From Lysobacteraceae bacterium (lineage in GTDB: Bacteria > Pseudomonadota > Gammaproteobacteria > Xanthomonadales > Rhodanobacteraceae): DNA of 64,000 nucleotides. Positions within the stretch are counted from its first letter, which is position 1; every line of letters begins with the position of its first letter. The DNA lies in NCBI GenBank assembly GCA_018970895.1, contig JAGWVM010000001.1:2289-66288 (forward strand), given 5' to 3'. The position numbers were made by a program, and so were the translations under genes. Below the pieces are notes generated by a model, which was not told where the DNA came from, did not search any database, and was given only the letters and a program-made list of their open reading frames with translations. Below are positions 22,030-59,472 of the stretch, piece after piece.

Positions 22030-22056
22030 TGACCAGATTCGCCGCGTTTTTTCGCA
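22030..22056 (+). promoter_or_regulatory. Candidate ECF promoter upstream of PAAR operon
   Basis: TGACCAGATT-N12-TCGCA. Confidence 0.65.
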
Positions 22057-22193
22057 CCTCCCCATGGGACGCCATGCCGACCGGTCGCACCTGTTCGCGC
22101 CGGTGCGCAGTGAAGGGGAGGGGAGCCATGTCCAAGCCAGACCAATCGTCTGCATGTACCGCGCGGCTCGTCGCGCGGGCGGGGGGCTGAGCG

Positions 22194-25237: not shown

Positions 25238-25453
25238 GCTGGATTCCCTGCATTGCCGGCCACGGCCGGGAACATCGCGGCGGTCACTCCGGACCGGCCG
25301 GCACCCGGCGCGCCGTCGCCTGCCCGGTCGGCGAAGTGTACGCGCCGCCGAGCAGCGGAGCATGCGGCCAGCCGGCTTGCGCGCCGGTCGTGCGCCAGCC
25401 ATTGCTGCAACGCCCCGGGTGGCGGCTGCCGCGTGGACCCGGAGACCGGCCCG

Positions 25454-27481: not shown

Positions 27482-27492
27482 CGGAGGCGCAC

Positions 27493-28032: not shown

Positions 28033-28090
28033 GCCGCTGCCCGGCCTATCCGCATCGGTCCGACTTCCCTCATCAAGAGGAGCGCTGAGC

Positions 28091-29434: not shown

Positions 29435-29459
29435 CATTTCAGACACGGGCATCGATCCG

Positions 29460-30797: not shown

Positions 30798-30801
30798 GCG
30801 C

Positions 30802-32172: not shown

Positions 32173-32176
32173 GCTC

Positions 32177-38062: not shown

Positions 38063-38075
38063 CGACCCCCTCTCC

Positions 38076-41000: not shown

Positions 41001-41822
41001 CAGCCGCCCGCGTCCGGTTCGTCGACTCCCGGCAATGTCGCCACGGCGCCCACGGCGGCGGAGGCGCCGGCGGCGACCCCGTCCGGCAGTCCGTCGCGTC
41101 CGGGAGCCGTCGCCGCGCCGGCTGCCACGACACCGGCCAGCGGCAAGGCCGTCGCCGGCAAGCCGGGGACGACCGCCGCGGCCGGGTCCGGCGGCGATCC
41201 CTGCGGCGACCCGGCGCTGGTCGGCAAGGGGCGGATCTGCGCCGACGAGGTGGCAGGCAAGCGCGGTCCGCCGCTGGTGGTGATTCCCGCCATCGCAGGG
41301 GGGCGGCCGTACGCGATGTCCCGCACCGAGATCAGCATCAGCGAGTTCAACCGCTTCTGCAGCGCTACCGGCCAGTGCGCGCCGCGACCGGCCGGCGATC
41401 GCCTCACCGCCACCCAGCCGGTGAGCAACATCCCGCTGTCGCTTGCGAGGGCGTACACCGCCTGGTTGAGCAAGGGCAGCGGGTTCACCTACCGCCTGCC
41501 CACCGACGCCGAATGGCTGCATGCGGCGAAAGCGGGCGGCAACTGGAAGCAGTCGCCGGACAGCAACTGCGTGCCGCCCAGCGCCAACGGCGACGACGGC
41601 AGCGGTGCGCCGATCTCGTCGCTGGGCCGCAGCCCCAACCCGTGGGGCCTGGTCAACCTGACCGGCAATGTGTGGGAGTGGGTGGTCAGCGGCGGTCAGG
41701 TGGGCGTGCGTGGTGCCAGCTACACCAGCTACTGGTCCGACTGCACGGTCGACGCGCATCGCGCCGACAGCGGCAAGGCCCAGAACGACGTCGGATTCCG
41801 CGTGCTGAGGGAGCTCAGATGA
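38076..41822 (+). CDS. ppkA: T6SS Ser/Thr kinase PpkA with periplasmic helical region and C-terminal FGE-sulfatase (SUMF1)-like domain
   Basis: IGRGGMGVV, VAVK, HSDFKPGN, DFG, YASLE; TM; RLPTDAEW, PNPWGLVNLTGNVWEW, GFRV. Confidence 0.92.
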   Translation: MNFLNELIAALQADKLQLSTLLHILGSRGAQPEPVHREEVALLERLAVEGALSPEVTRTLLGELQRQQATTGRATTAADDATVVHAGSGAGDATVVQARADDATLVQPTAGGAGAHDADATVVQPSATPAGHPHDDEATVVKPSSSPRGSDTQATGVTGRTGTTGATSSTFNADSWQRMSAAEGGDYAAVGSVLKGRFHLEKEIGRGGMGVVFLALDERKVEARDRDPYVAVKVLNDEFRRHPDSLIALQREARRSQSLAHDNIVRVYDFDKDGTIVFMTMEYVDGSDLKALIREKAYNGMPLARARPLIEGMAWALKRAHAAGVVHSDFKPGNVMVTRDGVPKVFDFGIARAGKHLGEATGEETVFDAGTLGALTPAYASLEMIQGKEPTPSDDIYALGCVAFELLTGKHPFDKVSAEVAMREGRKPPPVPGLTKRQYQTLCDAVAFTSDKRLKHAADLVEGLREISLRERAGPVVVVGAIGVVILVAGGWGVRHYLQQREVDEVVARFAPTDPQHFTTEDQALGALNALGADQRTRVVSDQSDLIQTFLLGRVDAYWNPGRQRYDYAGAQHVFSLRDRLKLFSPKLDLKRTAIEQERNDLLNQLDTRLSKAIENGAIFADQPDNAVRILATIRAIDPTSGLLKNAELELKYDIAIGRSIAANHAAEAQAQLKQALAVFPDSTRLRQRAAELAQMAPAALARGPAGSGQTVPQAHRALADLIARPTLDASWQAAVGQALATLAPAHDAQTPAQVDALAAAIAGAVAGQNDPSQLPLASRAVDLGLQYAPKSAPLLAQRSRLDALQQQVQAQLAQESAAAEVTSRIESMKRAAAANDVAKAQEALARIRTLQPDNAFLAGEGPQLLASAYLGQATDAARRGRFQVAADTLARGLKALGNRDDLRQARARYDLVADLMKARSGGASADDLARMHQQLARLQRDDPDGLKSLESDLKLHGQLAQGSLSALLDTLKPSQPPASGSSTPGNVATAPTAAEAPAATPSGSPSRPGAVAAPAATTPASGKAVAGKPGTTAAAGSGGDPCGDPALVGKGRICADEVAGKRGPPLVVIPAIAGGRPYAMSRTEISISEFNRFCSATGQCAPRPAGDRLTATQPVSNIPLSLARAYTAWLSKGSGFTYRLPTDAEWLHAAKAGGNWKQSPDSNCVPPSANGDDGSGAPISSLGRSPNPWGLVNLTGNVWEWVVSGGQVGVRGASYTSYWSDCTVDAHRADSGKAQNDVGFRVLRELR

Positions 41823-42160
41823 ACGATCAGGAGCGTCGGGTCAACCAGGCACTGCAGGCCCTGGACGAGGCCCACCGGCTCGGCCGGCTCGGCCGCGAGG
41901 ATTACCGGGGCCGCCGGCGCGCCCTGCTGCAGGGACTCAACGACAGCAGCGGAGTGACCGCCCGCAACGCGATCACCCCGGCGGCCGCAGGCCGCCCGCG
42001 GACCGATGCGCGGCGGCCGGCCATGCCGGTCGGTGACATCGCCGGCGCGCTGTTTCCCGACCGTCGCCGCCGCATGCTGCAGACGTGGCTGCTGGCTGTG
42101 GCCGGGCTCGCGCTGGTCCTGCTGCTGGTGTACGGGGCGATGTCGATGGGCGGTGCCTGA
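41819..42160 (+). CDS. Small membrane protein with SHOCT-like N-terminal helices and C-terminal TM
   Basis: ATGA overlap with ppkA; LQALDEAHRLGRLGREDYRGRRRALL; TM WLLAVAGLALVLLLVYGAM; 113 aa. Confidence 0.7.
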   Translation: MNDQERRVNQALQALDEAHRLGRLGREDYRGRRRALLQGLNDSSGVTARNAITPAAAGRPRTDARRPAMPVGDIAGALFPDRRRRMLQTWLLAVAGLALVLLLVYGAMSMGGA

Positions 42161-42183: not shown

Positions 42184-42210
42184 TGACCGGATTTGTGACG
42201 CAGTTGCGCA
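42184..42210 (+). promoter_or_regulatory. Candidate ECF promoter upstream of TpsB
   Basis: TGACCGGATT-N12-GCGCA. Confidence 0.65.
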
Positions 42211-42318
42211 TTACTCAGGAGGGGCGTTCGGAAGGGGCTGCACGCGCACTCCGTTCGCCGCCACGGGGCGGGTCCACCGTACCCGGTGCCGGCAGCCTCA
42301 TTGCAGGGGGACAAACAC

Positions 42319-44394
42319 GTGCGGATGGCGACACTGGCAGCAGCCCTGGCGCTGGCATTGGCTGGCGGGCGGGCATGGGCGCAGGACAACCCGCCTGGCC
42401 CGACGGCACCGGCGAGCCGGGCGAGTCCGTCTCCCCCGGTGGCCCCGGCGCAGCGGATCCTGGTCAGCGGCATGCCCGCCGGCGGCGATGCCGCCGCGGC
42501 GCAGGCGATCGTGCAGGCGGGCTACCGGCAGGCGATGGCTGCCGCCGGCCATCCGGCGACGTTGAGCCCGGCGCAGTGGCAGGCCGCCGCCGATGCCATC
42601 ACTGCAGCCTTGCGCCGGGCCGGATTCAAGGATGCCCGTGCCTACCCGGCCGAGCAGGTGATGGCCTTCACCGTGCAGGACGTGCCGGCCGGCGCGGCCG
42701 GCGCGGTCGCGCAACAACCGTCGCCGCCGCCACCGGCGCAAACGGCACCGGACCGCGCAGCGACGGCCGTGCCGGCACTCGCCACGACACCGCCGCTCCC
42801 CGCCAACGTGCTTCCACCGGTCCGCGAGCGCACGCAGGCCTCGACGCAGACCGTGGCAGTCAGCGCGTTCCGGGTTAGGGGTGTCGGCGCGCACCCGGAT
42901 GCCGGGATCACCCCGGCGTCGATGCAGGCGCTGGCGGACGAGCAGCTGCACAAGCTCGGTGCAGCCGGCCAGCCCGCGCGACTCGATTTCGCCCAGCTGC
43001 AGCAGGTGGCCGACACCCTGACCGAGACCTATCGCAAGGCCGGCTTCATCTTCGGCACAGCGTTCCTGCCGGCGCAGACGATCGGACCGGACCAGGTGGT
43101 CGATATCCAGGTGCTCGAAGGCACCCTGGGACGGGTCATAGTCAAGGGCAACAAGCGCTACCGGGCCCGTGCGATCGCGGCATCGGTGGAGCCGCTGAAG
43201 GGCAGGGTGCTGCGCAAGGGCGAGGTCGATTCGGCGCTGCTCTACGCGCGCGAGCTGCCGGGCGTGTCGGTGAGCTCGACCTTCCAGCCGGGCGAGAAGA
43301 CCGGCCAGACCGACCTGCTGATGGTGGCCAACGAGGCGAAGCGGCCTTACACGATCACCACCGGCGCGAACAACTACGGTACCGATCTCACCGGTCGCTA
43401 TCGCGCCCAGCTAGGCGTTACCTGGAACAGCCCGCTGGGCATCGGCGACAGCTTCGCGGCCAACGTCGACTATGCGATGGACCCGCGCAACAACGTCTAC
43501 GGCTCGCTGGTGTACCGCGCGCCGACGCTGGTGGTTCCGGGGCTCAGCGGCGTGATCGGCGCGACCCGCAGCGAGCTGCAGCTCAACTCCAGCCAGCTCG
43601 CCGCGCTCAACGTGAAGGGGCCAAGCTCTTCGCAATACGCTGGTGCCGACTGGAAGTTCGTCAACACCGACACGATGCAGATGCAGGCCACGCTGCACTA
43701 CATCCGCGAGAAGTCGCGCCTGACCAGCCTCGGCATCCCGCTGTCGGACGAGAGCTTCGACGTGGCCGAGCTGGCCTGGGCGATGAATCGCACCGACCAG
43801 CGCCTGCACGGCATCGATCTGCTGCAGGTGAGCCTGCGCAAGTCGATCAAGGACCGCTCGCGCGAGCCGGATCTGGTCAGCCCGAACCATGCCCGCAGCT
43901 TTACCAGCCTGCGCTTCTCCTACACGCGCCTGCAGTTCCTGACCAAGTCGCAGCGCGCCTACTTCAAGCTGGCCGGACAGTGGACCAACGCCGCGCTGGC
44001 GCCGCTGGAGCAGTTCGTGATCGGCGGCCCGGACAGCGTGCGCGCCTATCCGATCGCCGACGGCCTGACCGACCGCGGCTATTACGCCTCGCTGGAATAC
44101 CACGTGGACGCGCCGGGCTTTGGCAACAGGATCTCGCCGTTCTACGCGCGACCCTGGCGCGAGCTGCTGGAGCTGGAAGCATTCGTCGATTACGCCCGCG
44201 GCATGCCGGCCGGTGCGGACCGCGCGGGCAACAGCGTGCTGACCTTCAAGGGCGTCGGCGCCGGCTTCATCTTCCGCCTGCCGCGATTCCACCGCTTCGA
44301 GTTCCATCTCGACGGCGCGGTGCCGGTCGGCGGACCGCAGGCCTCGGACAAGAAGGGCTACCACATCTACGCGCGCTTCGGCTTCACGTTCTAG
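42319..44394 (+). CDS. Two-partner secretion transporter TpsB (ShlB/FhaC/HecB family)
   Basis: Signal peptide, POTRA domains (YRKAGF...FLPAQ...VLEG), beta-barrel, F.IGGPDSVRAY (VRGY-like loop 6), terminal FGFTF. Confidence 0.93.
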   Translation: MRMATLAAALALALAGGRAWAQDNPPGPTAPASRASPSPPVAPAQRILVSGMPAGGDAAAAQAIVQAGYRQAMAAAGHPATLSPAQWQAAADAITAALRRAGFKDARAYPAEQVMAFTVQDVPAGAAGAVAQQPSPPPPAQTAPDRAATAVPALATTPPLPANVLPPVRERTQASTQTVAVSAFRVRGVGAHPDAGITPASMQALADEQLHKLGAAGQPARLDFAQLQQVADTLTETYRKAGFIFGTAFLPAQTIGPDQVVDIQVLEGTLGRVIVKGNKRYRARAIAASVEPLKGRVLRKGEVDSALLYARELPGVSVSSTFQPGEKTGQTDLLMVANEAKRPYTITTGANNYGTDLTGRYRAQLGVTWNSPLGIGDSFAANVDYAMDPRNNVYGSLVYRAPTLVVPGLSGVIGATRSELQLNSSQLAALNVKGPSSSQYAGADWKFVNTDTMQMQATLHYIREKSRLTSLGIPLSDESFDVAELAWAMNRTDQRLHGIDLLQVSLRKSIKDRSREPDLVSPNHARSFTSLRFSYTRLQFLTKSQRAYFKLAGQWTNAALAPLEQFVIGGPDSVRAYPIADGLTDRGYYASLEYHVDAPGFGNRISPFYARPWRELLELEAFVDYARGMPAGADRAGNSVLTFKGVGAGFIFRLPRFHRFEFHLDGAVPVGGPQASDKKGYHIYARFGFTF

Positions 44395-44673
44395 AGCCCG
44401 GTCATGATCTCCAAGCTCCCCGCGTTGTCATCGAGTGGTCGCGCCGCGGCGGCGCGTGGCGCCGGGCCGACGGGTGCTCGGCTCACGCTGCGCGCCGCCG
44501 CGGCGCGGCCACCCGGTGACAACCCGCGAGGCCGGGCCTGCTTGCCCGCATGCCGGCGTCGTCCATCCGTGGCGGACGGACGTCCACTCCCTCCTTCTTC
44601 CTTGGCCTGCGCGCGAGCCGTTCCCGGCGCCGGGGACTTGCAGACCACGACCAGGCTCTAACAGGCAACGACC

Positions 44674-47600
44674 ATGCATATCCCTACCCAGACGTCGCAT
44701 CGTCCGTCCCGCCGCAGCCACTTCGAAGGAGCGCGTCCGCCGCGACGCAAGGCGTTGCCGCTGTGCCTGTCGATGGCCCTGGCGGCCGGTGCGATGATGT
44801 CCACGGGCGCCCGCGCCGGCAGCATGGTGCCCGGCGCGAACGCCGGCACGGTCTCGGTCAGCGCGCTGACCTCGCCCACCGGCGGGACCGTGGTGGGCGG
44901 TGTCGGCTCGATCAGCCAGAGCGGCGGCACCACGGTGATCAACCAGCTGTCGAACCGGCTGGCGCTGGACTGGACGACGTTCAACGTCGGCAAGGACGCC
45001 ACGGTGCTGTTCAAGCAGCCGTCGTTCACCGCGGTGGCGCTGAACCGCATCCTCGACCAGAACCCCAGCCAGATCTTCGGCCGCATCAATTCCAATGGCC
45101 AGGTGTTCCTGATCAACACCCACGGCATCATCTTCGGTACCAGCGCGCAGGTGAATGTCGGCGGCCTGGTGGCCAGCACGCTGGACCTCACGCCCAGCGA
45201 TTTCCTGGCCAACCACTTTAACCTTGACGCGCACGGCGGCAGCGCCGGCGTGGTCAACCACGGCACCATCGCCGCAGCCAGCGGCGGCTCGGTGAGCCTG
45301 CTCGGCGGCAGCGTGGCGAACGACGGCCTGATCCTGGCCAACTACGGCAACATCAACCTGGACGGCGCCGACCGCGCGGTGCTGGATTTCGACGGCAACG
45401 GACTGATCACCGTCGAGGTCACCGGTGCGCTGAAGCGTCGCCTGGACGATCGCGCCGCCGTGTCCAACAGCGGCACGCTCGAGGCCGACGGCGGCACCGT
45501 GGTGCTGCAGGCCTCGGCCGCGAAGGACCTGTTCACCGACGCGGTGAACAACTCCGGGGTGATCACGGCGGCGGGCATCCGCAACGATGGCGGCACGGTG
45601 AGGTTGGTTGCGTCCGGCGGCAACGCGATCAGCAGCGGCAGCATCAACGTGTCCGGCGTGCACGGCGGCACGGCGCAGGTATTGTCCGATGCCAACGTCG
45701 GGGTGACCGGCAGCATCGACGCCTCCGGCACGCAGGGCGGCGGCACCATCCGCGTTGGCGGCGGCTACCAGGGCGGCGAAGGCCTGACCCGGGCGAACGT
45801 GACCTACCTTGGCCCCGATGCGGTGCTCGATGCCGATGCCACGCAGCGGGGCAACGGCGGCTCGGTGGTGCTGTGGGGGGACAACGGCAACAATTTCTAC
45901 GGCAGCATCAGCGCGCGCGGTGGCGTGCTCGGCGGCAGCGGTGGTCGGGTGGAGACCTCCTCGCATTACGGCCTCAACGCGCAGGGCAATGTCGACGCCT
46001 CGGCGGCGAACGGCGCCGCCGGCCTCTGGCTGATCGATCCCTACAATGTCACCATCCAGACCGGTGGAGGTTCGCTGGCCTCGCCCTTCACCGCCACCGC
46101 CGACTCGACCATCAAGGCCAGCGACCTGGACGCTGCGCTCAACGGCACCAATGTCACGGTGTTCACTGGATCGGCCGGCAGCAGCAACGGCGATATCACG
46201 GTCAACGCCGCGGTGACGCCGAGCGCGGGCAACAATTCCCTCTATCTCGAAGCGGCCGGCGGCATCTTCCTAAACGCCAACATCACCGCCAACACGTCGC
46301 ACACGCTCAACCTGTATCTCTGGTCGAACTATGGCGGCGCGGCCGCGGGCACCACCTACACCAGCAACGCATCCTGCGCGGCCGGGGTGAGCTGTGTGGT
46401 GACGGTAGGCGGTACCTCCAATGCAGCGATCAGTACCGGTGGCGGCACGCTCGATATCCGCACCGGCACCGGCGGTGGCACATTGACTCTGGGCACCGGC
46501 AGCAAGACCGGAAACATCAACACCGCTGGCGGCGCGCTGACCGTGCACACCACCGGTATCACCGAGGTTGCCGGCTCCAACACCATCGTTGCCGGCACCT
46601 CCACACTCGACGCCGGCAGCGGCAACATCACGCTCGGCAACGCCAACGATTTCACCGTCACCGTGGGACTCACCGCGGGCAATGCGCAAATCGAGGACGC
46701 GAACTCGCTGGTGTTGGGCAACAGCACGCTCAGCGGCAGTCTCACCGCCACCGCGGTGACCGCCATCACGGTCAATGGCGCGATCACCGGCGTGGGCGAC
46801 GCGGCCTTCAGCACGGCGGCGTTGTCGGGGACCGGAAGCATCGCCGGGACCGGGGCGATCACCGGACTGGGCAGCTCGAACTTCGCGCTCACCGGGGCCA
46901 ACGCCGGCACCTACGGCGGCATCGCCTTCAGCGGCTTCGCCTCGGCCGACGCCACGCACGTCAGCGGTGCGGCGGGCTTCGACGACACCGCCCTGACCAG
47001 CGAGGGCATGACCTTTGCCTCCGCCACCCACGTCGCCGGCACCGGCACCATCGCCAACGTCAGCGGCAGCTTTGCCGACGACACCGGAACCTCTTCGACG
47101 AGTGGCATCGCCTATACCGGCTTCGGCGCGGTGACCGGCACCGGTGGAGACGTCACCGGCGTGACCGGCAATTTCAACCTGGGCACCCAGGTGTCGTCGG
47201 CTTCGGGGCTGGACTACAGCGGCTTCGCCGTCGCCACGGTCGCCGGCAGCGGCAGCGGCGCAACCCTCGTCGGCAGCGGGCAGACCTACATGCTGGACAA
47301 TGCGACTGCCGACAAGGGCAGCAACGGCGGCATCGCCTGGACCGGGTTCGGCAACATCCAGGACTCGACCGGCACGGTGGTCTTCGGTACCGGCGGCAAC
47401 CTCAGCGGCAGCGTCACGGCCAAGACGCTGGACTACAGCAGTTACGGTAGTGCAGTGAACTTCGACCTGTCCGCCGGCACCGGAACGACGACCGGTATCA
47501 GTGGCAGCTGGAGTGGCGTGACTGCGGTCACCGGCAGCGCCCAGGGCGACACGCTCGCCGGCACCGGCCAGACCTACACGCTGACCGGCGCCAACGCGGG

Positions 47601-50600
47601 CAACAACGGCACGGTCAGCTGGACGTCGTTCGAGAACATCGACGACGCCACCGGCACCATCGGCTTTTCCGCCGCCGGCAGCCTGAGCGGCAATGCAACG
47701 GTCCAGGCGCTGGACTACGGCAGCTACGGCAGTGCGGTGAACTTCGACCTGGCCGGCGGCAGCGGCACGACGACGGGCATCGGCGGCAGCTGGAGCGGAG
47801 TGACCTCGGTCGCGGGCAGTGCTGCGAGCGACACCGTCACCGGCAGCAACCAGACCTACACGCTGACCGGCGCGAACGCGGGCAACAACGGGACGGTGAG
47901 CTGGACGTCGTTCGAGAACATCGCCGACAGCGGCACCGGCACGCTCAAGGCGACCGGGGCGACCTTCAACCTCAGCGGCGGCAACTCGGGCACGGTAACC
48001 ACCCTGCTGCCCGGGGGCTTCAGCGGCATCGGCAATCTCGACGATGCCACCGGCACCGTGGCGTTCGGTGCCGGTGGCAGCCTGAGCGGCAACGTCACGG
48101 CCCAGGCGCTGGACTACGGCAGCTACGGCAGCGCGGTGAACTTCGACCTGGCCGGCGGCAGCGGCACGACGACGGGCATCGGCGGCAGCTGGAGCGGGGT
48201 GACCTCGGTCGCGGGCAGTGCTGCGAGCGACACCGTCACCGGCAGCAACCAGACCTACACGCTGACCGGCGCGAATGCGGGCAACAACGGCACGGTCAGC
48301 TGGACGTCGTTCGAGAACATCGACGACGCCACCGCCGGCACGGTGGCTTTTCACACGGGCAGCAGCCTGGGCGGCAACGTCACGGCCAAGACGCTGGACT
48401 ACGGCAGCTACGGCAGTGCGGTGAATTTCGACCTGTCCGCCGGCAGCGGCACGACGACGGGCATCAGCGGCAGCTGGAGCGGAGTGACCTCGGTCGCGGG
48501 CAGTGCTGCGAGCGACATCATCACCGGCAGCAACCAGACCTACACGCTGACCGGCGCGAATGCGGGCAACAACGGGACGGTGAGCTGGACGTCGTTCGAG
48601 AACATCGCCGACAGCGGCACCGGTACGTTGCGGGCTGCCAACCAGACCTGGAGCCTCACCGGGCACAACCAGGGCAGCGTGACCGACCTGTCCGGCACGT
48701 TCAGCGGCATCGGCAACCTCACCGACACGGGCTCCGGCGCCTTCCTGATGCACTCCGGGGCCGACGGCGACATTTCCGGCAACCTCGACGCGGGTACCGG
48801 CGGCAGCATCGACTACACCGGCTACAGCTCGGCGGTGAACGTGAACGTGTCCGGGGCCGGCACCACGGGCGTCGCAGGCACGGTCAGCGGCATCGCCTCG
48901 ATCGCGGCCAGCAGCGATCTCGGGGTCAACGGTGCCACCGCCGGCTCGCTGGATATCACCACCACCGGCGCCGGCACGACCACCACGCTCGGTACGCTCT
49001 CGACCGGCACGAAACTGACCGTCAACGCCAGCGGAACGGTGCTGCAGAGTGGTGCACTGATGGTCAACGGCGCGACCACGGTGAATGCCGGCAGCAATGC
49101 AATCGAGCTGACCAACAGCGGCAACGACTTCCAAGGCACGGTGAACCTCACCGGTGGCACGACGCAGATCACCGACAAGAACGCGCTGACCCTGGGCACG
49201 CTGTCGACGGGAGACCTCACCGCGACCAGCACCGGCACCTTGAACCTTGGCACCGGACCGGTGGGCGGCGCGCTGCTGGCGACCAGCAACGGCGGCACGA
49301 TCACCGAGGGGAGCGGCGGCGTGCAGGTGACGGGCACCAGCAACCTGCAGGCTGGTACCGGAGCGATCACCCTGACCGACGGCAACACCCATTTCGGCCT
49401 CGCGGTGACCGCGGCCGGGCAGGGCGTGTCGCTGGTGGACTCGGGCAATCTGACGATCGCCTCGCTGAGCAGCGGCACCAACGGCACGGTGAACTTGACG
49501 GCGGGCGGCTCACTGACGCTCCCGGCCCTCGGCATCGACACGGGGACCGCAGCCTTGACGCTGGCCGCAAACGGCGGTGCGCTGGTGATGCCGGGTGCGT
49601 TGAGTGGCGCCAGCATCGCCCTGAGCGGTCGCGACGGCATCACCCTGGGCAGCGACCTGAGCAGTGCGGGTACGGTGACGCTGACCAGCAGCAGCGGCGC
49701 GATCAGCCAGACCGGCGGCGTGCTTGCCGCCGGCACCCTCACCGGCAGCTCGGCCGGCGCGACCACGCTGGGTGACGCCAACCTGGTCACCGCGCTGGGT
49801 AGCTTCAGCGCAGCCGGCTTCAGCCTGACCAACGCGCAGGCATTGACCGTCAACGGGGCCGTGAGCGGCGGCAGCAGCACCACGATCGACACCGCCGGCA
49901 ACCTGGACCTGGGCGGCAACGTCAGCGGCACCACCACGACCCTGAGCGCCGGTGGCACGATCGACCAGACCGCGGGCATCGTCACGGCCACCACGCTGAA
50001 TCTCGGCTCGGTCGGCGGCGCCAGCCTCACCGGCAGCAACCTGGTCACCAACCTGGGGGAGGTGACCAATACCGGCAGCGGCGGGTTGTCCTTCACCAAC
50101 GCCAGCGGCCTGAACCTGGAGGGCGCGATCGATGTCGGCATCGCCAGCGGCAACGACCTGGCGCTGGCGGTCACCGGCAACCTGACCCAGTCCGGCGGCA
50201 GCGTGATCACCGCCAACCAGCTCAGTGGCAGCAGCACTGGCAATACCACGCTCGGCGGCAGCAACCGGCTGACCACGCTGGGCAGCTTCGCCGCAGCCAA
50301 CCTGGCGCTGACCAATGCGCAGGTGCTGGCCGTGAATGGTCCGCTGAGCGTGCCGGGCACGCTCAGCCTGACCACGACGGCCGGTGGACTCAGCCTCGCC
50401 AGCGATATTTCGGCGGCGACGGTGAACCTGAATTCAGCGGCGGCGCTGAGTCTGGCCAACCACATCGGTGCGACCACGTTGTCGCTGAGCTCCGGTGGTG
50501 CGATCAGCCAGAGCGCCGGGGCACTGACGGTCACCGGCACGACCACGGTGAACGCGGGCAGCCATGCGATCACGCTGACGGGCAGCGGCAACGACTTCGG

Positions 50601-53511
50601 TGGCACGGTGAACCTCACCGGCAGCACGACGCAGATCACCGACCAGAACGCGCTGACCCTCGGCACTCTGGCCACCGGCGCGCTGACGGCGACCAGCACT
50701 GGCGCGCTGGACCTGGGCATCGGAACGGTGGGCGGCGCGCTGCTTGCGACCAGCAACGGCGGCGCGATCACCGAGGGGAGCGGCGGCGTGCAGGTGACGG
50801 GCAGCAGCAACCTGCAGGCAGGCACGGGCGCGATCACGCTGGCGGACGGCAGCAACCATTTCACCGGAGCGGTGACGGCTGCGGGGCAGGGCGTGACGCT
50901 GGTGGACTCGGGCAACCTGACGGTTGCTTCGCTGAACAGCGGTACGAACGGTACGGTGAACCTCGTGGCAGATGGCGCGCTGGTGATCCAGGGTGCAACT
51001 AGCGGTGCGAACGCGAACCTGAGCGGTCGCGACGGAATCACCCTGGGCAGCAACCTGACCACTGCCGGCACGGTGACACTGACCAGCGGCAACGGTGCGA
51101 TCAGCCAGACCGCGGGCGTGATCACCGCCGGCGCGCTCACCGGCAGCTCGGCCGGAGACACCGTGCTCGGTGGCGCCAACCAGATCGGCACGTTGGGAAG
51201 CTTCAGTGCTGCGGACTTCACGCTTACCAACGCCGAGGCGCTGACCGTCGGCAGCAACCTGGTGGTCGGCGGAGGCACCGGATCGATCGCGCTGACCACC
51301 ACCAGCGGCGGCCTGACCGTCCAGCACGATCTCAATGGCGGGGCCATCACGCTGAACTCGGCGAGCAATCTCTCGCTGGCAGGCAACCTGGCCGGCAGCT
51401 CGCTCGATCTGGTATCCGGTGGCGACATCGCGCAGAGCGCTGGCGTCATCCAGGCCGGCACGCTGACCGGTCAGGCCGGTGGCGGCGTGACGCTGGCCAG
51501 GGCCAACAAGATCGGCACGCTGGGCAATGTCAGCGCGGCCAACGGGTTGAGCATCAGCAATGCCCAGGCACTGACCGTCGGCGGCACGGTGAACGGCGGC
51601 AGTTCGACCGGCCTCACCACCACCACCGGCAGCCTGACCACCAGCGGCAGCATCGGTGGCAGCTCGATCGCGCTGGCCGGGCAGGACGGGCTGGCGATCG
51701 ACGGCGCGGTGAACGCCGGCACCGGCGATATCACGCTCGGCTCGGCCGCCGGCGCGATCAGCGAAGGCAGCGCCGGCGTGCTCACCGCGGGCAGCCTCTC
51801 GGGCACATCCAGCGGTAGTGCCATGCTCGGCGGGGCCAACCAGGTGGTGACCCTGGGCAATTTCACCACGGGCGGCGATTTCAGCTTCCGCGACGCGCGC
51901 ACGCTGACCGTCAACAGTCCGCTCGACGTCCACGGGGGCAGCGGCAACCTCAGCCTGGCGACGAGCGGGGCCAGCTCGGACCTGATCCTCGGCACCGGCC
52001 TGGCCGGCGGTACGGTCACCCTGACCGCGGGGCACAACCTCACTACCTCGTCGGGCATCACCGCCAACACGCTGACCGGTAGTGCGGGAGGGCAGGCACA
52101 GCTGGGCGGAAGCAACCACGTCGGTACGCTGGGCGACTTCAGTGCCGGCAGCCTCACCTTCGGCAATGCCGGCGCGCTGGTGGTCGGGGGCCAGGTGAGC
52201 ACCGGCAGCGGTGCACTGGACCTGTCGACCATGGCGGGCAACCTGCGGCTGGCCGGCGCAGTCACGGGTGGCGCGGTCGGGCTGACCTCCGCCTCGGCGA
52301 TGGCCATCGACGGCACCGTGTCCGCCAGCACGCTTGCCCTGCAGGCGGCGGGCGCCATCACCCAGTCCGGCGGCGCGATCACTGCCAGCAGCCTCAGTGG
52401 TACCTCCGGCGGCAGCACCACGCTGGATGGGGCCAATCACGTCGGGTCCCTGGGCAGCTTCAGCGCTGCAGGCTTCCGCTTCACCAATGCCGGAGCACTC
52501 AGCGTGACCGGCCCGATCGACGGCAGCAGTTCGACGCGGCTGGCCACCACGTCCGGCGACCTGGCGATCAACGGGCAGGTCAGCGGCAACAGCACGACCC
52601 TGGTGTCGGCCGGAGTGATCGACGAAGGCGCCGCGGGCCGGATCGTGGCCAGCACCCTCGCGGGCCAGTCCGGCGGCGCCACCACGCTCGGCGGCAGCAA
52701 CAGCATCGATACGCTGGGCAGCTTCTCCGCCGCCGGCCTGAGCCTGACCAATGGCAAGGCCCTGAGCGTCGGCGGGCCCGTCAACGGCGGCGCCAGCGCC
52801 TCGCTCACCACGACATCCGGCGACCTCGCCGTGGACGGGCAACTGAGTGCCACCGCGGTATGGCTGCAGTCGGCCGGTGCGATCACCGAAGGCAGCGGCG
52901 GCGTGATCACTGCCAGCACGCTCAGTGGCCAGTCCGATGGACTCACCACGCTGGGCACGCAGTCGCAGGCTATCGGCAACCAGATCGACACGCTCGGCAA
53001 TTTCTCCTCGACGGCGGGATTCAGCCTGACCAACGCCGCGACCCTGACCCTGGCCTCGGTGGACAACAGCGCGTTCACCGTCGACGCGGGACACGCGGAG
53101 TTGTACCTGGGCGTGACCCAGGGCGACCTGCTGGCGCAGGGCAAGACGCCGATATACGACGGCACCGGCACGTTTGCCTCGGTCGGACACATGGGCTCGG
53201 CCTCGTCGCCGATCTACGTGATCGGCGACGGCCCGCAGCTGATCGCGCGGGTCGGCAACCCGCCGGCGTACTTCTATGCGGTGGACCGTCAGGGCAACAT
53301 CCTGCCGCTGACCGGCGAGCTGAGCTTCAACGTGCCGACCTCGCTGTTCTTCGGCAAGGCGCAGAACGGCAACGGCCGAGGCGATGCCTACATCGATCCG
53401 AGCGTGATCTCGGCCAACTACCGCTCGTTCGGCATCGTGCCCTCGGGCATCCTGCTGCCGGCCGACCAGCAGGCCTGCGATCCGCAGACGGAGGACTGCG
53501 GTGACCAGTAG
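44674..53511 (+). CDS. TpsA filamentous haemagglutinin-like beta-helix exoprotein, 2945 aa
   Basis: Long signal peptide; TPS domain (WTTFNVG, NRILDQNPSQIFG..NSNGQVFLIN.HG); Gly/Ser/Thr/Asn-rich repeats; no recognisable toxin C-terminus. Confidence 0.93.
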   Translation: MHIPTQTSHRPSRRSHFEGARPPRRKALPLCLSMALAAGAMMSTGARAGSMVPGANAGTVSVSALTSPTGGTVVGGVGSISQSGGTTVINQLSNRLALDWTTFNVGKDATVLFKQPSFTAVALNRILDQNPSQIFGRINSNGQVFLINTHGIIFGTSAQVNVGGLVASTLDLTPSDFLANHFNLDAHGGSAGVVNHGTIAAASGGSVSLLGGSVANDGLILANYGNINLDGADRAVLDFDGNGLITVEVTGALKRRLDDRAAVSNSGTLEADGGTVVLQASAAKDLFTDAVNNSGVITAAGIRNDGGTVRLVASGGNAISSGSINVSGVHGGTAQVLSDANVGVTGSIDASGTQGGGTIRVGGGYQGGEGLTRANVTYLGPDAVLDADATQRGNGGSVVLWGDNGNNFYGSISARGGVLGGSGGRVETSSHYGLNAQGNVDASAANGAAGLWLIDPYNVTIQTGGGSLASPFTATADSTIKASDLDAALNGTNVTVFTGSAGSSNGDITVNAAVTPSAGNNSLYLEAAGGIFLNANITANTSHTLNLYLWSNYGGAAAGTTYTSNASCAAGVSCVVTVGGTSNAAISTGGGTLDIRTGTGGGTLTLGTGSKTGNINTAGGALTVHTTGITEVAGSNTIVAGTSTLDAGSGNITLGNANDFTVTVGLTAGNAQIEDANSLVLGNSTLSGSLTATAVTAITVNGAITGVGDAAFSTAALSGTGSIAGTGAITGLGSSNFALTGANAGTYGGIAFSGFASADATHVSGAAGFDDTALTSEGMTFASATHVAGTGTIANVSGSFADDTGTSSTSGIAYTGFGAVTGTGGDVTGVTGNFNLGTQVSSASGLDYSGFAVATVAGSGSGATLVGSGQTYMLDNATADKGSNGGIAWTGFGNIQDSTGTVVFGTGGNLSGSVTAKTLDYSSYGSAVNFDLSAGTGTTTGISGSWSGVTAVTGSAQGDTLAGTGQTYTLTGANAGNNGTVSWTSFENIDDATGTIGFSAAGSLSGNATVQALDYGSYGSAVNFDLAGGSGTTTGIGGSWSGVTSVAGSAASDTVTGSNQTYTLTGANAGNNGTVSWTSFENIADSGTGTLKATGATFNLSGGNSGTVTTLLPGGFSGIGNLDDATGTVAFGAGGSLSGNVTAQALDYGSYGSAVNFDLAGGSGTTTGIGGSWSGVTSVAGSAASDTVTGSNQTYTLTGANAGNNGTVSWTSFENIDDATAGTVAFHTGSSLGGNVTAKTLDYGSYGSAVNFDLSAGSGTTTGISGSWSGVTSVAGSAASDIITGSNQTYTLTGANAGNNGTVSWTSFENIADSGTGTLRAANQTWSLTGHNQGSVTDLSGTFSGIGNLTDTGSGAFLMHSGADGDISGNLDAGTGGSIDYTGYSSAVNVNVSGAGTTGVAGTVSGIASIAASSDLGVNGATAGSLDITTTGAGTTTTLGTLSTGTKLTVNASGTVLQSGALMVNGATTVNAGSNAIELTNSGNDFQGTVNLTGGTTQITDKNALTLGTLSTGDLTATSTGTLNLGTGPVGGALLATSNGGTITEGSGGVQVTGTSNLQAGTGAITLTDGNTHFGLAVTAAGQGVSLVDSGNLTIASLSSGTNGTVNLTAGGSLTLPALGIDTGTAALTLAANGGALVMPGALSGASIALSGRDGITLGSDLSSAGTVTLTSSSGAISQTGGVLAAGTLTGSSAGATTLGDANLVTALGSFSAAGFSLTNAQALTVNGAVSGGSSTTIDTAGNLDLGGNVSGTTTTLSAGGTIDQTAGIVTATTLNLGSVGGASLTGSNLVTNLGEVTNTGSGGLSFTNASGLNLEGAIDVGIASGNDLALAVTGNLTQSGGSVITANQLSGSSTGNTTLGGSNRLTTLGSFAAANLALTNAQVLAVNGPLSVPGTLSLTTTAGGLSLASDISAATVNLNSAAALSLANHIGATTLSLSSGGAISQSAGALTVTGTTTVNAGSHAITLTGSGNDFGGTVNLTGSTTQITDQNALTLGTLATGALTATSTGALDLGIGTVGGALLATSNGGAITEGSGGVQVTGSSNLQAGTGAITLADGSNHFTGAVTAAGQGVTLVDSGNLTVASLNSGTNGTVNLVADGALVIQGATSGANANLSGRDGITLGSNLTTAGTVTLTSGNGAISQTAGVITAGALTGSSAGDTVLGGANQIGTLGSFSAADFTLTNAEALTVGSNLVVGGGTGSIALTTTSGGLTVQHDLNGGAITLNSASNLSLAGNLAGSSLDLVSGGDIAQSAGVIQAGTLTGQAGGGVTLARANKIGTLGNVSAANGLSISNAQALTVGGTVNGGSSTGLTTTTGSLTTSGSIGGSSIALAGQDGLAIDGAVNAGTGDITLGSAAGAISEGSAGVLTAGSLSGTSSGSAMLGGANQVVTLGNFTTGGDFSFRDARTLTVNSPLDVHGGSGNLSLATSGASSDLILGTGLAGGTVTLTAGHNLTTSSGITANTLTGSAGGQAQLGGSNHVGTLGDFSAGSLTFGNAGALVVGGQVSTGSGALDLSTMAGNLRLAGAVTGGAVGLTSASAMAIDGTVSASTLALQAAGAITQSGGAITASSLSGTSGGSTTLDGANHVGSLGSFSAAGFRFTNAGALSVTGPIDGSSSTRLATTSGDLAINGQVSGNSTTLVSAGVIDEGAAGRIVASTLAGQSGGATTLGGSNSIDTLGSFSAAGLSLTNGKALSVGGPVNGGASASLTTTSGDLAVDGQLSATAVWLQSAGAITEGSGGVITASTLSGQSDGLTTLGTQSQAIGNQIDTLGNFSSTAGFSLTNAATLTLASVDNSAFTVDAGHAELYLGVTQGDLLAQGKTPIYDGTGTFASVGHMGSASSPIYVIGDGPQLIARVGNPPAYFYAVDRQGNILPLTGELSFNVPTSLFFGKAQNGNGRGDAYIDPSVISANYRSFGIVPSGILLPADQQACDPQTEDCGDQ
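47428..48625 (+). repeat. Four tandem ~70-aa repeats (LDYGSYGSAVNFDL...SWTSFENI) in TpsA
   Basis: Copies start at 47428, 47710, 48109, 48394; copies 2 and 3 nearly identical at DNA level over ~210 nt. Confidence 0.92.
49075..50964 (+). repeat. Dispersed 141-aa internal duplication in TpsA (49075-49497 and 50542-50964)
   Basis: TTVNAGS.AI.LT.SGNDF.GTVNLTG.TTQITD.NALTLGTL...SGTNGTVNL occurs twice, 1467 nt apart. Confidence 0.88.
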
Positions 53512-54610
53512 GCACGGCCTTTCCGCCCGGTCCCGGTCGCTTGTCGTCGCGGGCCTGCTTGCCACCTCGACCGCGTCGCTGCACGCCCAGCTGGCGCCCC
53601 GGCTGAGTGCGCGGGTATCGCTGGACGAACTGGCAACGGCCACCGCGGCGCTGCCCGTCGACCCGGCGCTGGCGACGTTGCGTGCGCAGTTGCAGTCGAT
53701 GGCCGATGGCCTGCGCCAGGCCGCGGGCAGCGATGCGGACACACCGGTCGACCTGGTCGGTGACGCCTTGCGCGGCCGCATCGTGCGTGCGCATGCGGCC
53801 GCGGCGCGGGTGCAGGCCTACGAGACGGCTGCCGCCGGGTGCCAGGCGGGCGACCGCACGGCAATGCAGACGGCGCTGGCCCAGAGCGTGAAGCTGCTGG
53901 CCGCGGCCGTCGACAGTGCCAAGGTGGTGCCGGCCATCGATGACGTGCAGTCGATGCCGACGCCGGAATCGCTGTTTGCGATCCGTGCCGGCGGTGGTCC
54001 GTTGGCGTTCGCCCTGACCGGCAGCGATCTGTTCGACAGCCAGTGCCCGTCCCCGCAGGTCCGAGCCACCGCTGCCGACGGGGTGGCACTGGCCCACCAG
54101 CCCATGCTCACCGGTGCCTTGCCGGCGCGACTGGAGCTGAAGTGGCCGGATGTCGGCCAGGTGCCTGCTGGCCCGGTGGTGCTGCACGTGGTCGCGCAGC
54201 GCAAGGTGTTCCTGCTCGGATGCCAGGCACTGCCCGAGGCCACGGCCGTGGTCGAGGTGGTCCCGGCCGCGCACTACCGCGTCGATTACGTGCTGGAGGC
54301 GGTCTGTCCTGCGCCGGGTGAGCCAGCGCGCACCGTGGCGCTTGGCAGGGGCACGCTGGACCTGGCCGGAGCCGGCGCGAGCGTTTCGCGCAATGTGCCG
54401 ACCTCGGCGTGTGCGGAGCCCTCGGCCTATCGACTCAGCGCGTCGGTCAGCTCGGCGGGTGGTGCACCATCGGCGGCTGGCCCGTTCATCCAGCCGGCGC
54501 AGGCCTCGATCACCGCCGGCTTGCCCGGCGGGCTCACGTTGAGCTGGGATCCTTCCGTGCAGGCGGTGTTCGTGCGTGCCGGCGCGGGCACCTGCAAGGG
54601 GGTGCGTTAG
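53501..54610 (+). CDS. Secreted hypothetical protein coupled to TpsA
   Basis: GTG start overlaps the last 11 nt of tpsA; signal peptide ending SLHA; six Cys; helical N-half and beta-rich C-half. Confidence 0.72.
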   Translation: MTSRHGLSARSRSLVVAGLLATSTASLHAQLAPRLSARVSLDELATATAALPVDPALATLRAQLQSMADGLRQAAGSDADTPVDLVGDALRGRIVRAHAAAARVQAYETAAAGCQAGDRTAMQTALAQSVKLLAAAVDSAKVVPAIDDVQSMPTPESLFAIRAGGGPLAFALTGSDLFDSQCPSPQVRATAADGVALAHQPMLTGALPARLELKWPDVGQVPAGPVVLHVVAQRKVFLLGCQALPEATAVVEVVPAAHYRVDYVLEAVCPAPGEPARTVALGRGTLDLAGAGASVSRNVPTSACAEPSAYRLSASVSSAGGAPSAAGPFIQPAQASITAGLPGGLTLSWDPSVQAVFVRAGAGTCKGVR

Positions 54611-54641
54611 CCAGCGCTCCGTCGCCGGCGCGGAACGACGG

Positions 54642-55688
54642 TCAGAACTCGTCGGTACCGGAGATCGTGCGCAGCTCGCTGAGACCGCCCGGCGCCAGGT
54701 CCTGCATCAGCTCCGGAAAGCTCAGTCCGACCAGTCGCTGGGCGCGACGCAGCAGGATCGGCAGCGGGCTGGCCGGTTCGTACCTTGCGTAGTACTCGCA
54801 CAGTTCGTCCAGCCGGCGGCGCACGTCCTCCGGGCTCTGGATGCGTCCGGCCGCCACCGCAGCTCCCGCCGCGGCCGGTTCGGTGCCGGCTTCGTCCCCG
54901 GCCATCGTCTCCTCTCCGGAGGCGGTGGCTTCGGGGCTCCGCAGCGCGACCTGCGCCTCGAGGAATTTCTTCAGCTCGTAGGCATCGGAAAGCAGCGGCT
55001 TGAGGTCCGGGCCCAGCGTGCCGATGCGGTCGGTGAACAGCGCGTCGATGGCCTTGCCCAGGTCGAGTATCCGCGCTGCCGCCTCCAGCGAACCGGTGAG
55101 CTGGCTCTCGTCGCAGTCAAGGCAGCAGGCCTCGATGTCGGTCATCGACGGCAGGCCCTCGCCGCTCTCGCTGCCGGACACCTTCAGCGTGCCCTGGGCC
55201 ACGCGCAGGTCGCGCAACGAAAAGCGCCCGATCCGCGGCGAGGCGACGAACGGAGTGTTGCGCAGGTAGGCGAGCACGGCCAGCGGATCGCCCAGTGGCA
55301 CCACGGCATTGACGCGGGCGGTGGGATCGTTGTCGTCTTCGGCGTCGAGCTGCGGGTGCACCGCATCCCAGAAATTCTCGAGCAGGCCGTGCACCAGGCC
55401 CAGGCCGCGGGCCAGGCCGGCCAGGCCCTCGGTGCGCAGCCAGGCGGTGGACAGGCAGGTCGCCACGCGCAGGTCGCGGGTGCGTTCGAACAGGCCGTTG
55501 GACAGGACGATCACCTTGTCCCATTCCGGCTCTTCGGCGGCCTTTACCGCATCGCCCATCGCACGTTCGGCGCGGGGCGCGGCGGCGCGCTCCAGTGCCA
55601 TGAAATCGGCGTCGTATTCCAGGTCCGGGCCGCAGGGGGCGTCCTCGCCCAGCGGTGAGAGAAAGGTCGTCAGCAGGTCGTCGGACAT
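54642..55688 (-). CDS. tssA: T6SS TssA (ImpA N-terminal domain)
   Basis: GPDLEYDADF, TRDLRVA, LLENFWDAVHPQLD, YEPASPLPILLRRAQRL. Confidence 0.95.
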   Translation of the reverse strand: MSDDLLTTFLSPLGEDAPCGPDLEYDADFMALERAAAPRAERAMGDAVKAAEEPEWDKVIVLSNGLFERTRDLRVATCLSTAWLRTEGLAGLARGLGLVHGLLENFWDAVHPQLDAEDDNDPTARVNAVVPLGDPLAVLAYLRNTPFVASPRIGRFSLRDLRVAQGTLKVSGSESGEGLPSMTDIEACCLDCDESQLTGSLEAAARILDLGKAIDALFTDRIGTLGPDLKPLLSDAYELKKFLEAQVALRSPEATASGEETMAGDEAGTEPAAAGAAVAAGRIQSPEDVRRRLDELCEYYARYEPASPLPILLRRAQRLVGLSFPELMQDLAPGGLSELRTISGTDEF

Positions 55689-55754
55689 GGGCGGACTCGT
55701 CGGGAATGGACCACGGCATTGCCCGGTCGAGGGGCCGGGCGTCTCCCTCTGTAG

Positions 55755-55781
55755 TGCGCAAAAGCCGGCGGGATCCGGTCA
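55755..55781 (-). promoter_or_regulatory. Candidate ECF promoter upstream of tssA
   Basis: Minus strand TGACCGGATC-N12-GCGCA; its TGA doubles as the FUSC stop codon. Confidence 0.6.
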
Positions 55782-57902: not shown

Positions 57903-58004
57903 GCCGCGTCCGGGGTCATGGGGCAAGTGCCGGGGATTCTGCACCAGCCCCCGTCAATGCGGCGCGGTTGCCGCGATCCGGACCGCCTGCGCGTCAGCGG
58001 ACGC

Positions 58005-58568
58005 TCAGGCGCGGCCGGCGAATTCGCCGGTGGTGGTGTTCACCCACACCTTCTCGTCGTTGCTGATGTACTCGGGCACCTGGATCTCGATGCCGGTGCT
58101 CAGCTTGGCCGGCTTGGCGCGCTTGGTGGCGCTGGAGCCCTTCATTTCCGGCGCGGTGTCGACCACGGTCAGCACCACGCTGGTGGGCACCTGCAGGCCG
58201 ACCGGGGCGTCGTCGATCAGCTGCACGTAGTAGCCCTCCAGCTCCTCGACGACGTAACCGGCGTTGTCGCCGACCAGCTCGGGGCCGAGCAGGTACTGGG
58301 TGTAGTCCTCGGTGTCCATGAACACGAAGGCGTCGCCGTCCATGTAGGAGAAGGTGGCGGCGCGGCGCACCAGGTCCATCTCCTTCAGGTCGTCGTCGGC
58401 CCGCAGGCTGAGGTCGAACTTACGCCCGCCCGGGATCGAATACATGGTGAAACGGAAGGTGACGTTGCCGCCGCGCGCGGTCGGCGCGCTGCGCTCGATG
58501 TCGCGCACCTGGTAGACGGTGCCGTCGTGTTCGACCACGTTGCCTTTCTTGACGTCGGAAGCTTTCAT
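58005..58568 (-). CDS. yeiP: Elongation factor P-like protein EfpL/YeiP
   Basis: EF-P three-domain layout with PTARGG tip loop (Arg), [20 protein letters not shown]. Confidence 0.9.
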
Positions 58569-58603
58569 GAGTGTGTGTGCCGGCAGGTTTCGGTTTCTTC
58601 GGA

Positions 58604-58682
58604 CGTCATCCCGGCGAAAGCCGGGATCCAGCGCCTTTATGTTGTGCGAAGTCGCTGGATTCCAGCATTCGCTGGAATGACG
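58604..58682. repeat. Palindromic REP-like intergenic element
   Basis: CGTCATCCCGGCGAAAGCCGGGATCCAG-spacer-CTGGATTCCAGCATTCGCTGGAATGACG: two hairpins plus terminal CGTCAT/ATGACG inverted ends. Confidence 0.8.
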
Positions 58683-58704
58683 GGTGCGAGGCCTGAGGAG
58701 TGGA

Positions 58705-59472
58705 TTACTTCGGCTGCAACCGCACCGCGCCGTCCAGGCGGATGGTCTCGCCGTTGATGTAGCGGTTGGTCAGGATGAACGCGACCGTGGCGGCGAACTC
58801 CTCCGGCTTGCCCAGGCGCGACGGGAACGGGATCGAGGCGGACAGCGACTCCTGCACCGCCGGCGGCATGGAGTCGACCATCGGGGTCCAGAAGATGCCC
58901 GGCGCGATGGTCGCCACGCGGATGCCGAAGCGGGCCAGCTCGCGGGCCATCGGCAGGGTCATGCCGACCACGCCGCCCTTGGAGGCCGAGTACGCGGCCT
59001 GGCCGATCTGGCCCTCGTAGGCGGCCACGCTGGCGGTGTTGATGATCACCCCGCGCTCGCCGTCCTCGCCGGCCTCGTTGCCCTGCATCAGCGCCGCGGC
59101 GGCCTTGGCCACGTTGAAGCTGCCGACCAGGTTCACCATCACCGTGGTCTGGAACTGCGACAGCGCCATCGGGCCTTCCTTGCCCAGCACGCGGCCGGCG
59201 CCGAGGATGCCGGCGCAGTTCATGACCACGTTCAGCCCGCCCATCGCCTCGCGCGCGGCGGCCACGTTGGCGGCCACGCCGTCCTCGCTGGTGACGTCGG
59301 TGCGGTAGAAGCGCGCGTGGTCGCCCAGCGCCTGCGCGGCGGCCTGGCCTTTCTCCTCGTTGACGTCGAACAGCGCCACCCTGGCGCCGTGCGCGACGAG
59401 GTGCCGGGCGACGGCGTGGCCGAGTCCGGAGGCGCCGCCGGTGATGACGGCCTTGACCTGATCGAGCTGCAT
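58705..59472 (-). CDS. SDR oxidoreductase, 3-hydroxyacyl-CoA dehydrogenase type II (HSD10-like)
   Basis: [51 protein letters not shown]. Confidence 0.92.

Follow-up and report, generated by a model that had tools for sequence, protein, structure and literature searches.

A two-partner secretion operon embedded in, and apparently co-regulated with, a type VI secretion cluster of Dyella

Why does a gene cluster for a type VI secretion system (T6SS) carry a two-partner secretion (TPS) operon, and do the two work together? This question is raised by a stretch of 64,000 nucleotides with a GC content of 70% (contig JAGWVM010000001.1, positions 2,289 to 66,288; hereafter the window) from a Dyella genome, the assembly of which (GCA_018970895.1) measures 3.6 Mb, is 96% complete and has D. 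ginsengisoli LA-4 and D. lutea as its closest named relatives. An earlier reading of this DNA, hereafter the original prediction, proposed that a TPS module lying between ppkA and tssA is co-regulated with the T6SS and supplies a giant adhesin that tethers the cell to its target, such as an amoeba, or positions firing. The embedding and the apparent co-regulation are strongly supported by a promoter motif unique in the genome, by sites found genus-wide and by the strict retention of the TPS genes, and we infer from these features that the TPS probably also gives functional help to the T6SS.

The locus holds a true TPS (type Vb) operon, which consists of tpsB, tpsA and a secreted accessory gene, here called orfX, and its gene content at 42184-54610 is as originally described. 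The layout needs amendment, since tssA lies on the minus strand, convergent with the operon, and a small open reading frame (ORF) of 113 aa had been omitted; four plus-strand genes, this ORF, tpsB, tpsA and orfX, thus occupy the space between ppkA and the convergent tssA. The operon has the following parts:

42184..42213, plus strand: tpsB promoter (TGACCGGATTTGTGACGCAGTTGCGCATTA), with the -35 box TGACC, a 17-nt spacer and the -10 box GCGCATTA, about 105 nt upstream of the tpsB start
42319-44394, plus strand: tpsB, matching PF08479 POTRA_2 (1.6e-13) and PF03865 ShlB (5.7e-20)
44674-53511, plus strand: tpsA, 2945 aa, with a TPS domain and beta-helix repeats
53501-54610, plus strand: orfX, 369 aa, with a clear signal peptide; overlaps the tpsA stop

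TpsB is an Omp85-type outer-membrane transporter, as the TpsB partner of a type Vb system should be; it comprises a signal peptide, an Ala/Pro-rich N-terminal extension, two POTRA domains and a ShlB barrel with a VRAY loop-6-like motif at residue 574, and its orthologs in 80 loci show 45-90% identity. The type Vb character of TpsA is given by its TPS domain at aa 72-326 (PF05860 TPS, 6.5e-33; TIGR01901, 3.3e-23), which was recovered by scanning the first 500 residues alone, the Pfam scan of the whole protein having shown only DUF5649 repeats. The protein further possesses an extended Sec signal peptide, repeats of approximately 95 aa, the DUF5649 repeats and a conserved C-terminal module. The two genes are adjacent and co-oriented on the plus strand, as befits a type Vb pair, an arrangement shared by all 80 related loci.

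In an AlphaFold model of the C-terminal part of TpsA (pLDDT 84), the beta-helix runs to about residue 2886, and the last ~55 residues, which are highly conserved and include two Cys, are modelled as disordered. Homologs of this tail were found only among FhaB-like proteins of Rhodanobacteraceae/Lysobacteraceae, all of them generically annotated; beyond the TPS domain and DUF5649, TpsA had no Pfam or PDB sequence match, and a sequence search of the PDB with profiles of the TpsA C-terminus and of OrfX likewise returned no match. An RGD triplet is located at residue 2902 (53377-53385), within the conserved tail; it is confined to the closest Dyella relatives, with RSD, HGD, HLD or RAD elsewhere, and is therefore probably not functional. 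OrfX is predicted to be a secreted or periplasmic protein, and its model (pLDDT 84) consists of a four-helix bundle followed by two Ig-like beta-sandwich domains, with conserved Cys; a fold search gave only generic Ig-like matches. The gene occurs in the loci of Dyella, Rhodanobacter and Frateuria and was undetected in those of Xanthomonas, Stenotrophomonas, Luteimonas, Lysobacter and Luteibacter.

The evidence for shared control comes from the promoters. The motif that tpsB had been said to share with tssB and tssA was confirmed: TGACC-N17-GCGCAYTA has exactly three matches in the whole assembly, upstream of tssB, tpsB and tssA, which is far beyond chance. The other sites in the window are these:

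9579..9608, plus strand: tssB promoter, same motif
55752..55781, minus strand: tssA promoter, same motif
22031..22060, plus strand: weak variant TGACC-N17-TCGCACCT, upstream of the PAAR and TPR-methyltransferase genes

In a scan with a weight matrix built from 25 training sites, 22 of which came from other genomes, the same three promoters took the top three places genome-wide (tpsB 35.0 bits, tssA 33.7, tssB 26.5), and a gap of 7 bits separated the third from the next match at 19.5. The copy upstream of the PAAR gene is uncertain because it scored only 15.7 bits, rank 12 genome-wide. The three orthologous sites in eight other Dyella genomes read TGAYC-N17-RCGCAYTA, with the same position, boxes and invariant spacing, and the spacers of the tssB and tssA sites diverge among these genomes; invariant spacing around diverging spacers is the footprint of a promoter of the sigma-factor type, and the motif probably marks direct sigma-dependent promoters in Dyella. 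In contrast to the tssB and tssA spacers, the 17 nt between the boxes of tpsB (ATTTGTGACGCAGTT, 42189-42205) are themselves conserved across Dyella, which may point to an additional regulator-binding site particular to the TPS operon. At the tssA promoter, the stop codon of a FUSC-family gene (55779-55781) lies within the TGACC box, so that tssA would have its own promoter abutting an unrelated upstream gene.

Outside these genomes, two to four copies of the motif occur inside the T6SS clusters of Rhodanobacter, D. agri and Frateuria sp. Soil773, and the tpsB site is conserved in Rhodanobacter and Frateuria; the Frateuria matches 530-600 nt upstream of tpsB were discounted, as they lie upstream of the intergenic region in what is apparently coding sequence. 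The Xanthomonas T6SS cluster lacked the motif, and the sole match in X. phaseoli and X. euvesicatoria was judged to be due to chance, being apparently inside a coding region and, in X. phaseoli, ~4 Mb from the cluster.

Which factor reads the motif? A candidate regulator is the pair of genes that stands directly before the tssB promoter:

5328-8882, plus strand: Hanks kinase, with a Pkinase match
8898-9467, plus strand: extracytoplasmic function (ECF) sigma factor, Sigma70_ECF 2.9e-48; directly upstream of the tssB promoter together with the Hanks kinase (pair 5328..9467)

The motif is most likely read by this ECF sigma factor, as judged from its position beside tssB and from its distribution: a 70%-identical ECF sigma factor was present in both of the motif-bearing genomes tested and in none of the three motif-lacking ones. 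In Xanthomonas, the route described in the literature leads from EcfK through TagK to the T6SS genes, and an AraC-type TagK candidate adjoins tssB. The Dyella cluster does not have an X. citri-type PknS-EcfK-TagK cascade; no TagK ortholog was found in the genome, in which the best AraC match was 29% identical (E 2.7e-5). According to a published review, the clusters of D. japonica and D. thiooxydans lack EcfK/PknS, so that regulator content varies within the genus Dyella.

Co-occurrence across genomes, which had been proposed as a check, bore out the linkage. A scan with one genome per species yielded 80 loci from about 10 genera, among them Dyella, Rhodanobacter, Frateuria, Luteibacter, Luteimonas, Lysobacter, Xanthomonas (nine named species), Stenotrophomonas and Nevskia, and tagF-pppA-ppkA lay directly upstream of tpsB in about 70 of these 80 named loci. 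The order ppkA-(small ORF)-tpsB-tpsA-(orfX)-tssA was found in 13 of 13 orthologous loci of relatives; in the loci of Xanthomonas, Stenotrophomonas, Luteimonas, Lysobacter and Luteibacter, tssA comes after tpsA in the same orientation. Of 300 genomes sampled evenly across the order, 10 carried this T6SS subtype, defined by a TssA at least 54% identical plus a full-length PpkA match, and all 10 had tpsB between ppkA and tssA, although related genomes are not independent samples. An empty-site comparison is provided by a sister subtype (five genomes of one genus; TssA 44-46% identical), where only ~350 bp separate the convergent ppkA and tssA and TPS genes are absent. The TPS stays in the Xanthomonas cluster although the motif is absent there and the regulator differs. 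The TPS operon is best explained as an ancestral accessory module of one T6SS subtype of the order Xanthomonadales/Lysobacterales, the subtype that gives X. citri its resistance to amoebae. A Stenotrophomonas-like tagF-pppA-ppkA-tpsB-tpsA-tssA locus was also encountered in JAHREJ010000002.1, deposited as Bacillus subtilis subsp. subtilis SK7B5; its TpsB groups with Stenotrophomonas on the TpsB tree, and the assembly is probably contaminated or mislabelled.

Taken together, the position of the TPS inside the cluster, the shared promoter that is unique in the genome and the retention of the TPS in every related cluster examined suggest that the two systems probably work together. We consider it reasonably probable that the operon provides a co-regulated, non-toxic surface filament within the T6SS regulon, which would probably aid target contact. 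TpsB would serve as the outer-membrane Omp85 channel that exports TpsA, a beta-helical filament of roughly 3000 residues devoid of a toxin domain. The operon promoter in Dyella, with the same bipartite TGAYC-N17-RCGCAYTA element as the tssB and tssA promoters, would be recognised by the ECF sigma factor whose gene stands with that of the Ser/Thr kinase beside tssB, and the shared element implies that the filament would be put on the surface while the T6SS is being built. Its most likely role there would be that of a contact or adhesion factor, holding or sensing the target surface for a contact-dependent weapon.

Several points weigh against this picture. Three of the sites used to train the weight matrix were those of the window itself; the link between the motif and the sigma factor draws on adjacency and on a correlation across five genomes; and co-induction in Dyella is something we infer from promoters only. 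The Dyella ECF sigma factor and kinase are only 32-33% identical to the X. phaseoli EcfK/PknS region, which, together with the lack of a TagK ortholog, indicates that the wiring differs between Dyella and Xanthomonas. No recognised adhesin-type binding domain was seen in TpsA beyond its generic beta-helix repeats, either in the Pfam scans or in the C-terminal model. Furthermore, 3 of the 13 sampled genomes with a TpsB ortholog had no ppkA/tssA of this type found, and 6 of the 80 named loci had no T6SS gene within 10 kb, their TPS copies being intact. The stand-alone copies sit on short branches at the tips of the TpsB tree, within T6SS-linked clades, a placement that indicates at least five independent recent decouplings, and their intactness implies that the TPS can be useful, or can at least persist, without a T6SS; the claim of an amoeba tether or of a role in firing position is somewhat weakened by them.

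The alternatives depend in part on the composition of the surrounding cluster. Its genes were mapped by frame analysis of GC content at third codon positions (GC3) and by Pfam/NCBIfam scans of the window:

9838-19630, plus strand: tssB, tssC, hcp, tagJ, tssE (by position), tssF, tssG and clpV
between clpV and vgrG: variable region with a PAAR gene (by position, without a Pfam scan), a TPR-methyltransferase gene and a minus-strand muramidase gene
25094-35707, plus strand: vgrG, a DUF6931 gene, fha, tssK, tssL and tssM
35712-41822, plus strand: tagF, pppA and ppkA
38076-41822, plus strand: ppkA, with Pkinase and FGE-sulfatase domains; upstream neighbour of the TPS module
41819-42160, plus strand: small tail-anchored membrane ORF, 113 aa, the ATG of which overlaps the ppkA stop (ATGA)
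54642-55688, minus strand: tssA, ImpA_N 4.6e-33; convergent with the TPS operon
beyond tssA, minus strand: FUSC-family transporter gene, efp and an SDR gene

Pfam matches were obtained for the products of tssA, tssB, tssC, tssF, tssG, tssK, tssL, hcp, vgrG, clpV, tagJ, tagF, pppA, ppkA and fha; the assignment of tssM comes from tblastn similarity (49-50% identity in sister loci), and that of tssE and the PAAR gene from position only. With its core genes present, the cluster encodes a complete group-3-type T6SS with threonine-phosphorylation control genes, and its genes are 50-85% identical to those of the X. phaseoli cluster. The H1 system of P. aeruginosa and the anti-amoeba system of X. citri are of the same type. 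Two plus-strand ORFs at 54576-55658 and 55836-58757 had no Pfam matches and were rejected, as the GC3 analysis indicated the minus-strand tssA and FUSC-family genes instead. The 113-aa ORF is translationally coupled to ppkA through the ATGA overlap; it is kept downstream of ppkA in most Rhodanobacteraceae loci, was mostly undetected in Xanthomonas, and had no match in a Pfam scan. Just upstream of vgrG lies a divergent minus-strand gene for a PF11860 N-acetylmuramidase (24461-25057; 2e-57), which is followed by a 173-aa ORF with no Pfam match; the two may possibly form a peptidoglycan-targeting effector/immunity pair in an otherwise anti-eukaryote-type cluster.

PpkA is a Hanks-type kinase with one transmembrane segment and a periplasmic part of ~745 aa that ends in an FGE-sulfatase domain (aa 1077-1244), a domain type that TagR in the H1 system of P. 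aeruginosa also has; among the window ORFs scanned, no tagQRST-like genes were seen. Approximately 340 of its periplasmic residues are common to the TPS-linked PpkAs and give a poor alignment with the sister subtype that has no TPS. The TssJ family PF12790 had no match anywhere in the assembly, and fha runs straight into tssK (27719-30797). This family was likewise unmatched in all five sister-subtype genomes, and among five TPS-bearing relatives one genome had a single match, on another contig; the sensitivity of the search is doubtful, as only 1 of 14 control genomes was matched.

What else, then, might the operon do? A TpsB/TpsA pair with a very long filament, in a cluster dedicated to antagonism, would suit contact-dependent growth inhibition (CDI) of the CdiBAI type, with a toxin delivered into neighbouring bacteria. 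However, TpsA had already been described as lacking a CDI-type toxin/immunity end, and motif, Pfam and C-terminal conservation data all agree: the sequence scan found no VENN, VDNN, ELYN, LYVN or NEALV pre-toxin motif and no toxin Pfam domain in the protein, and identity over its last 300 residues is 44-92% among 26 species of at least seven genera, which is the opposite of a polymorphic CDI tip. In the place where a cognate immunity gene would be expected, orfX encodes a conserved 369-aa protein with a signal peptide, predicted to be secreted rather than small and cytoplasmic, and undetected in several genera. CDI was rejected as effectively refuted by sequence, and we assign it a negligible probability. 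A more serious competitor is that the filament belongs to the same regulon but has a separate job, as an independent adhesin or cytolysin-like filament with no physical or mechanistic coupling to the T6SS, employed in surface attachment, aggregation, or anti-phagocytic or membrane-damaging activity. In TPS cytolysins of the ShlA/HpmA/ExlA type, pore-forming or haemolytic activity resides in the TpsA; the Dyella TpsA gave no Pfam or PDB sequence match other than the TPS domain and DUF5649. The separate job is a real, if doubtful, possibility. It is favoured by the Sec signal peptide and TPS domain of TpsA, which imply that export needs no T6SS, by the stand-alone and apparently intact TPS operons with their at least five decouplings, and by the three sampled genomes with a TpsB ortholog in which no ppkA/tssA of this type was found. 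It does not readily account for the fact that every sampled genome with this T6SS subtype has the TPS (10 of 10), nor for the location of the module inside the cluster, where in Xanthomonas it lies co-directionally between ppkA and tssA; and this position is kept where regulation differs (PMC13584744).

At the opposite extreme, the operon might be an integrated envelope or signalling part of the T6SS. The TpsA tail, retained in the periplasm, would contact OrfX, the periplasmic region of PpkA or TssM-TssL and thereby trigger or position assembly, or TpsB/OrfX would replace a TssJ-like anchor. The C-terminal parts of FhaB and CdiA reportedly stay in the periplasm, and the last ~55 residues of TpsA, among the most conserved of the protein and yet predicted to be disordered, are typical of a docking peptide. 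The arrangement of the genes would also fit, as tpsBA follows ppkA, whose product ends in the periplasm with the FGE-sulfatase domain; so would the ~340 periplasmic PpkA residues that match poorly in the TPS-less subtype and the absence of a PF12790 match from the genome. Nevertheless, we regard this reading as unlikely: OrfX was undetected in the Xanthomonas and Stenotrophomonas loci, the same C-terminal tail is retained by stand-alone TPS copies that have no T6SS nearby, and the TPS-less sister subtype is equally without a TssJ match, so that there is no complementary distribution and replacement of TssJ by the TPS finds no support in the comparative data. In a bolder version, the filament would be the contact sensor of this T6SS, in which the distal part of TpsA would touch the prey (an amoeba, for example) and the invariant, Cys-bearing periplasmic tail would relay the contact to PpkA, with OrfX as adaptor in Rhodanobacteraceae, leading to Fha phosphorylation and assembly at the contact site; such a coupled T5b-T6 device seems to us rather improbable. 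Thus far, the co-regulated surface filament that aids target contact is the reading we prefer.

What is at stake can be seen from the xanthomonad anti-amoeba T6SS cluster, in which, according to a 2020 review, in silico prediction identified no anti-eukaryotic effectors and target recognition is unexplained (PMC7777525). A giant filament, present in every examined genome that has the subtype, stands out as the most evident unexplored part of this T6SS, and the Dyella motif defines a clean three-promoter regulon. If it is true that the filament helps or triggers firing, then two secretion systems would function here as a single unit, a rare case; if the filament is not coupled, then the module is a co-regulated adhesin and a matter of ordinary comparative genomics. 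The X. citri pair was already known, as was, from a review, a TagK regulon that includes two predicted type V secretion system (T5SS) genes (PMC13584744). The Dyella locus is therefore a well-supported further case of a known but uncharacterised TPS-T6SS association.

Among known systems, CdiB/CdiA/CdiI resemble the Dyella operon in the type Vb export of a very long filament acting at cell contact, and differ in that the Dyella locus has no pre-toxin motif, polymorphic toxin or immunity gene. FhaB/FhaC of Bordetella and XacFhaB/FhaC (XAC1815/1814) are closer in design, with a TpsB of POTRA domains plus barrel and a TpsA that combines a TPS domain and a long beta-helix with no toxin and a possibly periplasmic C-terminal segment. 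Outside the TPS domain, however, no sequence relationship to them was detectable: the Dyella repeats are of the DUF5649 type, the tail of the Dyella TpsA is specific to the order, the RGD at 2902 is not conserved, and the operon is embedded in, and apparently co-regulated with, a T6SS. Surface proteins encoded with a T6SS and reported or proposed to promote target contact include the Vibrio lipoprotein TasL and the products of the autotransporter and chaperone-usher pilus genes of Citrobacter rodentium cts1 (PMC13584744; PMC13475847). In that respect they are alike, although these proteins and their export routes are unrelated to those of Dyella, and none is a TPS system.

The nearest counterpart is the pair in the X. 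citri-type cluster, and the statement in the original prediction that a similar pair with no defined role lies there proved to be correct. XAC4114 is described as a ShlB-like TpsB transporter (PMC2632755), XAC4112-4125 as hemagglutinin/hemolysin genes with T6SS genes on their flanks (PMC6797930), and an 'adhesin' is listed among the predicted effectors of the cluster (PMC6653060); in our literature search, no paper was found that gives this TPS a function. The Xanthomonas loci that we compared were those of nine named species, including X. euvesicatoria, X. phaseoli and X. cissicola, X. citri itself being outside the set. They share with Dyella the order tagF-pppA-ppkA-tpsB-tpsA-tssA, a TpsB 54-57% identical to that of Dyella and a TpsA C-terminal module that is 43-47% identical. 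They differ in that tssA is co-directional and immediately downstream of tpsA, orfX and usually also the small transmembrane ORF are undetected, and the promoter motif is absent, with a TagK candidate beside tssB. A 2026 review that cites Lima et al. 2022 states that TagK activates 25 genes, namely those of the T6SS locus together with two uncharacterised genes for a predicted T5SS (PMC13584744); if these two are the pair inside the cluster, then co-regulation of the TPS with the T6SS survives a change of regulator.

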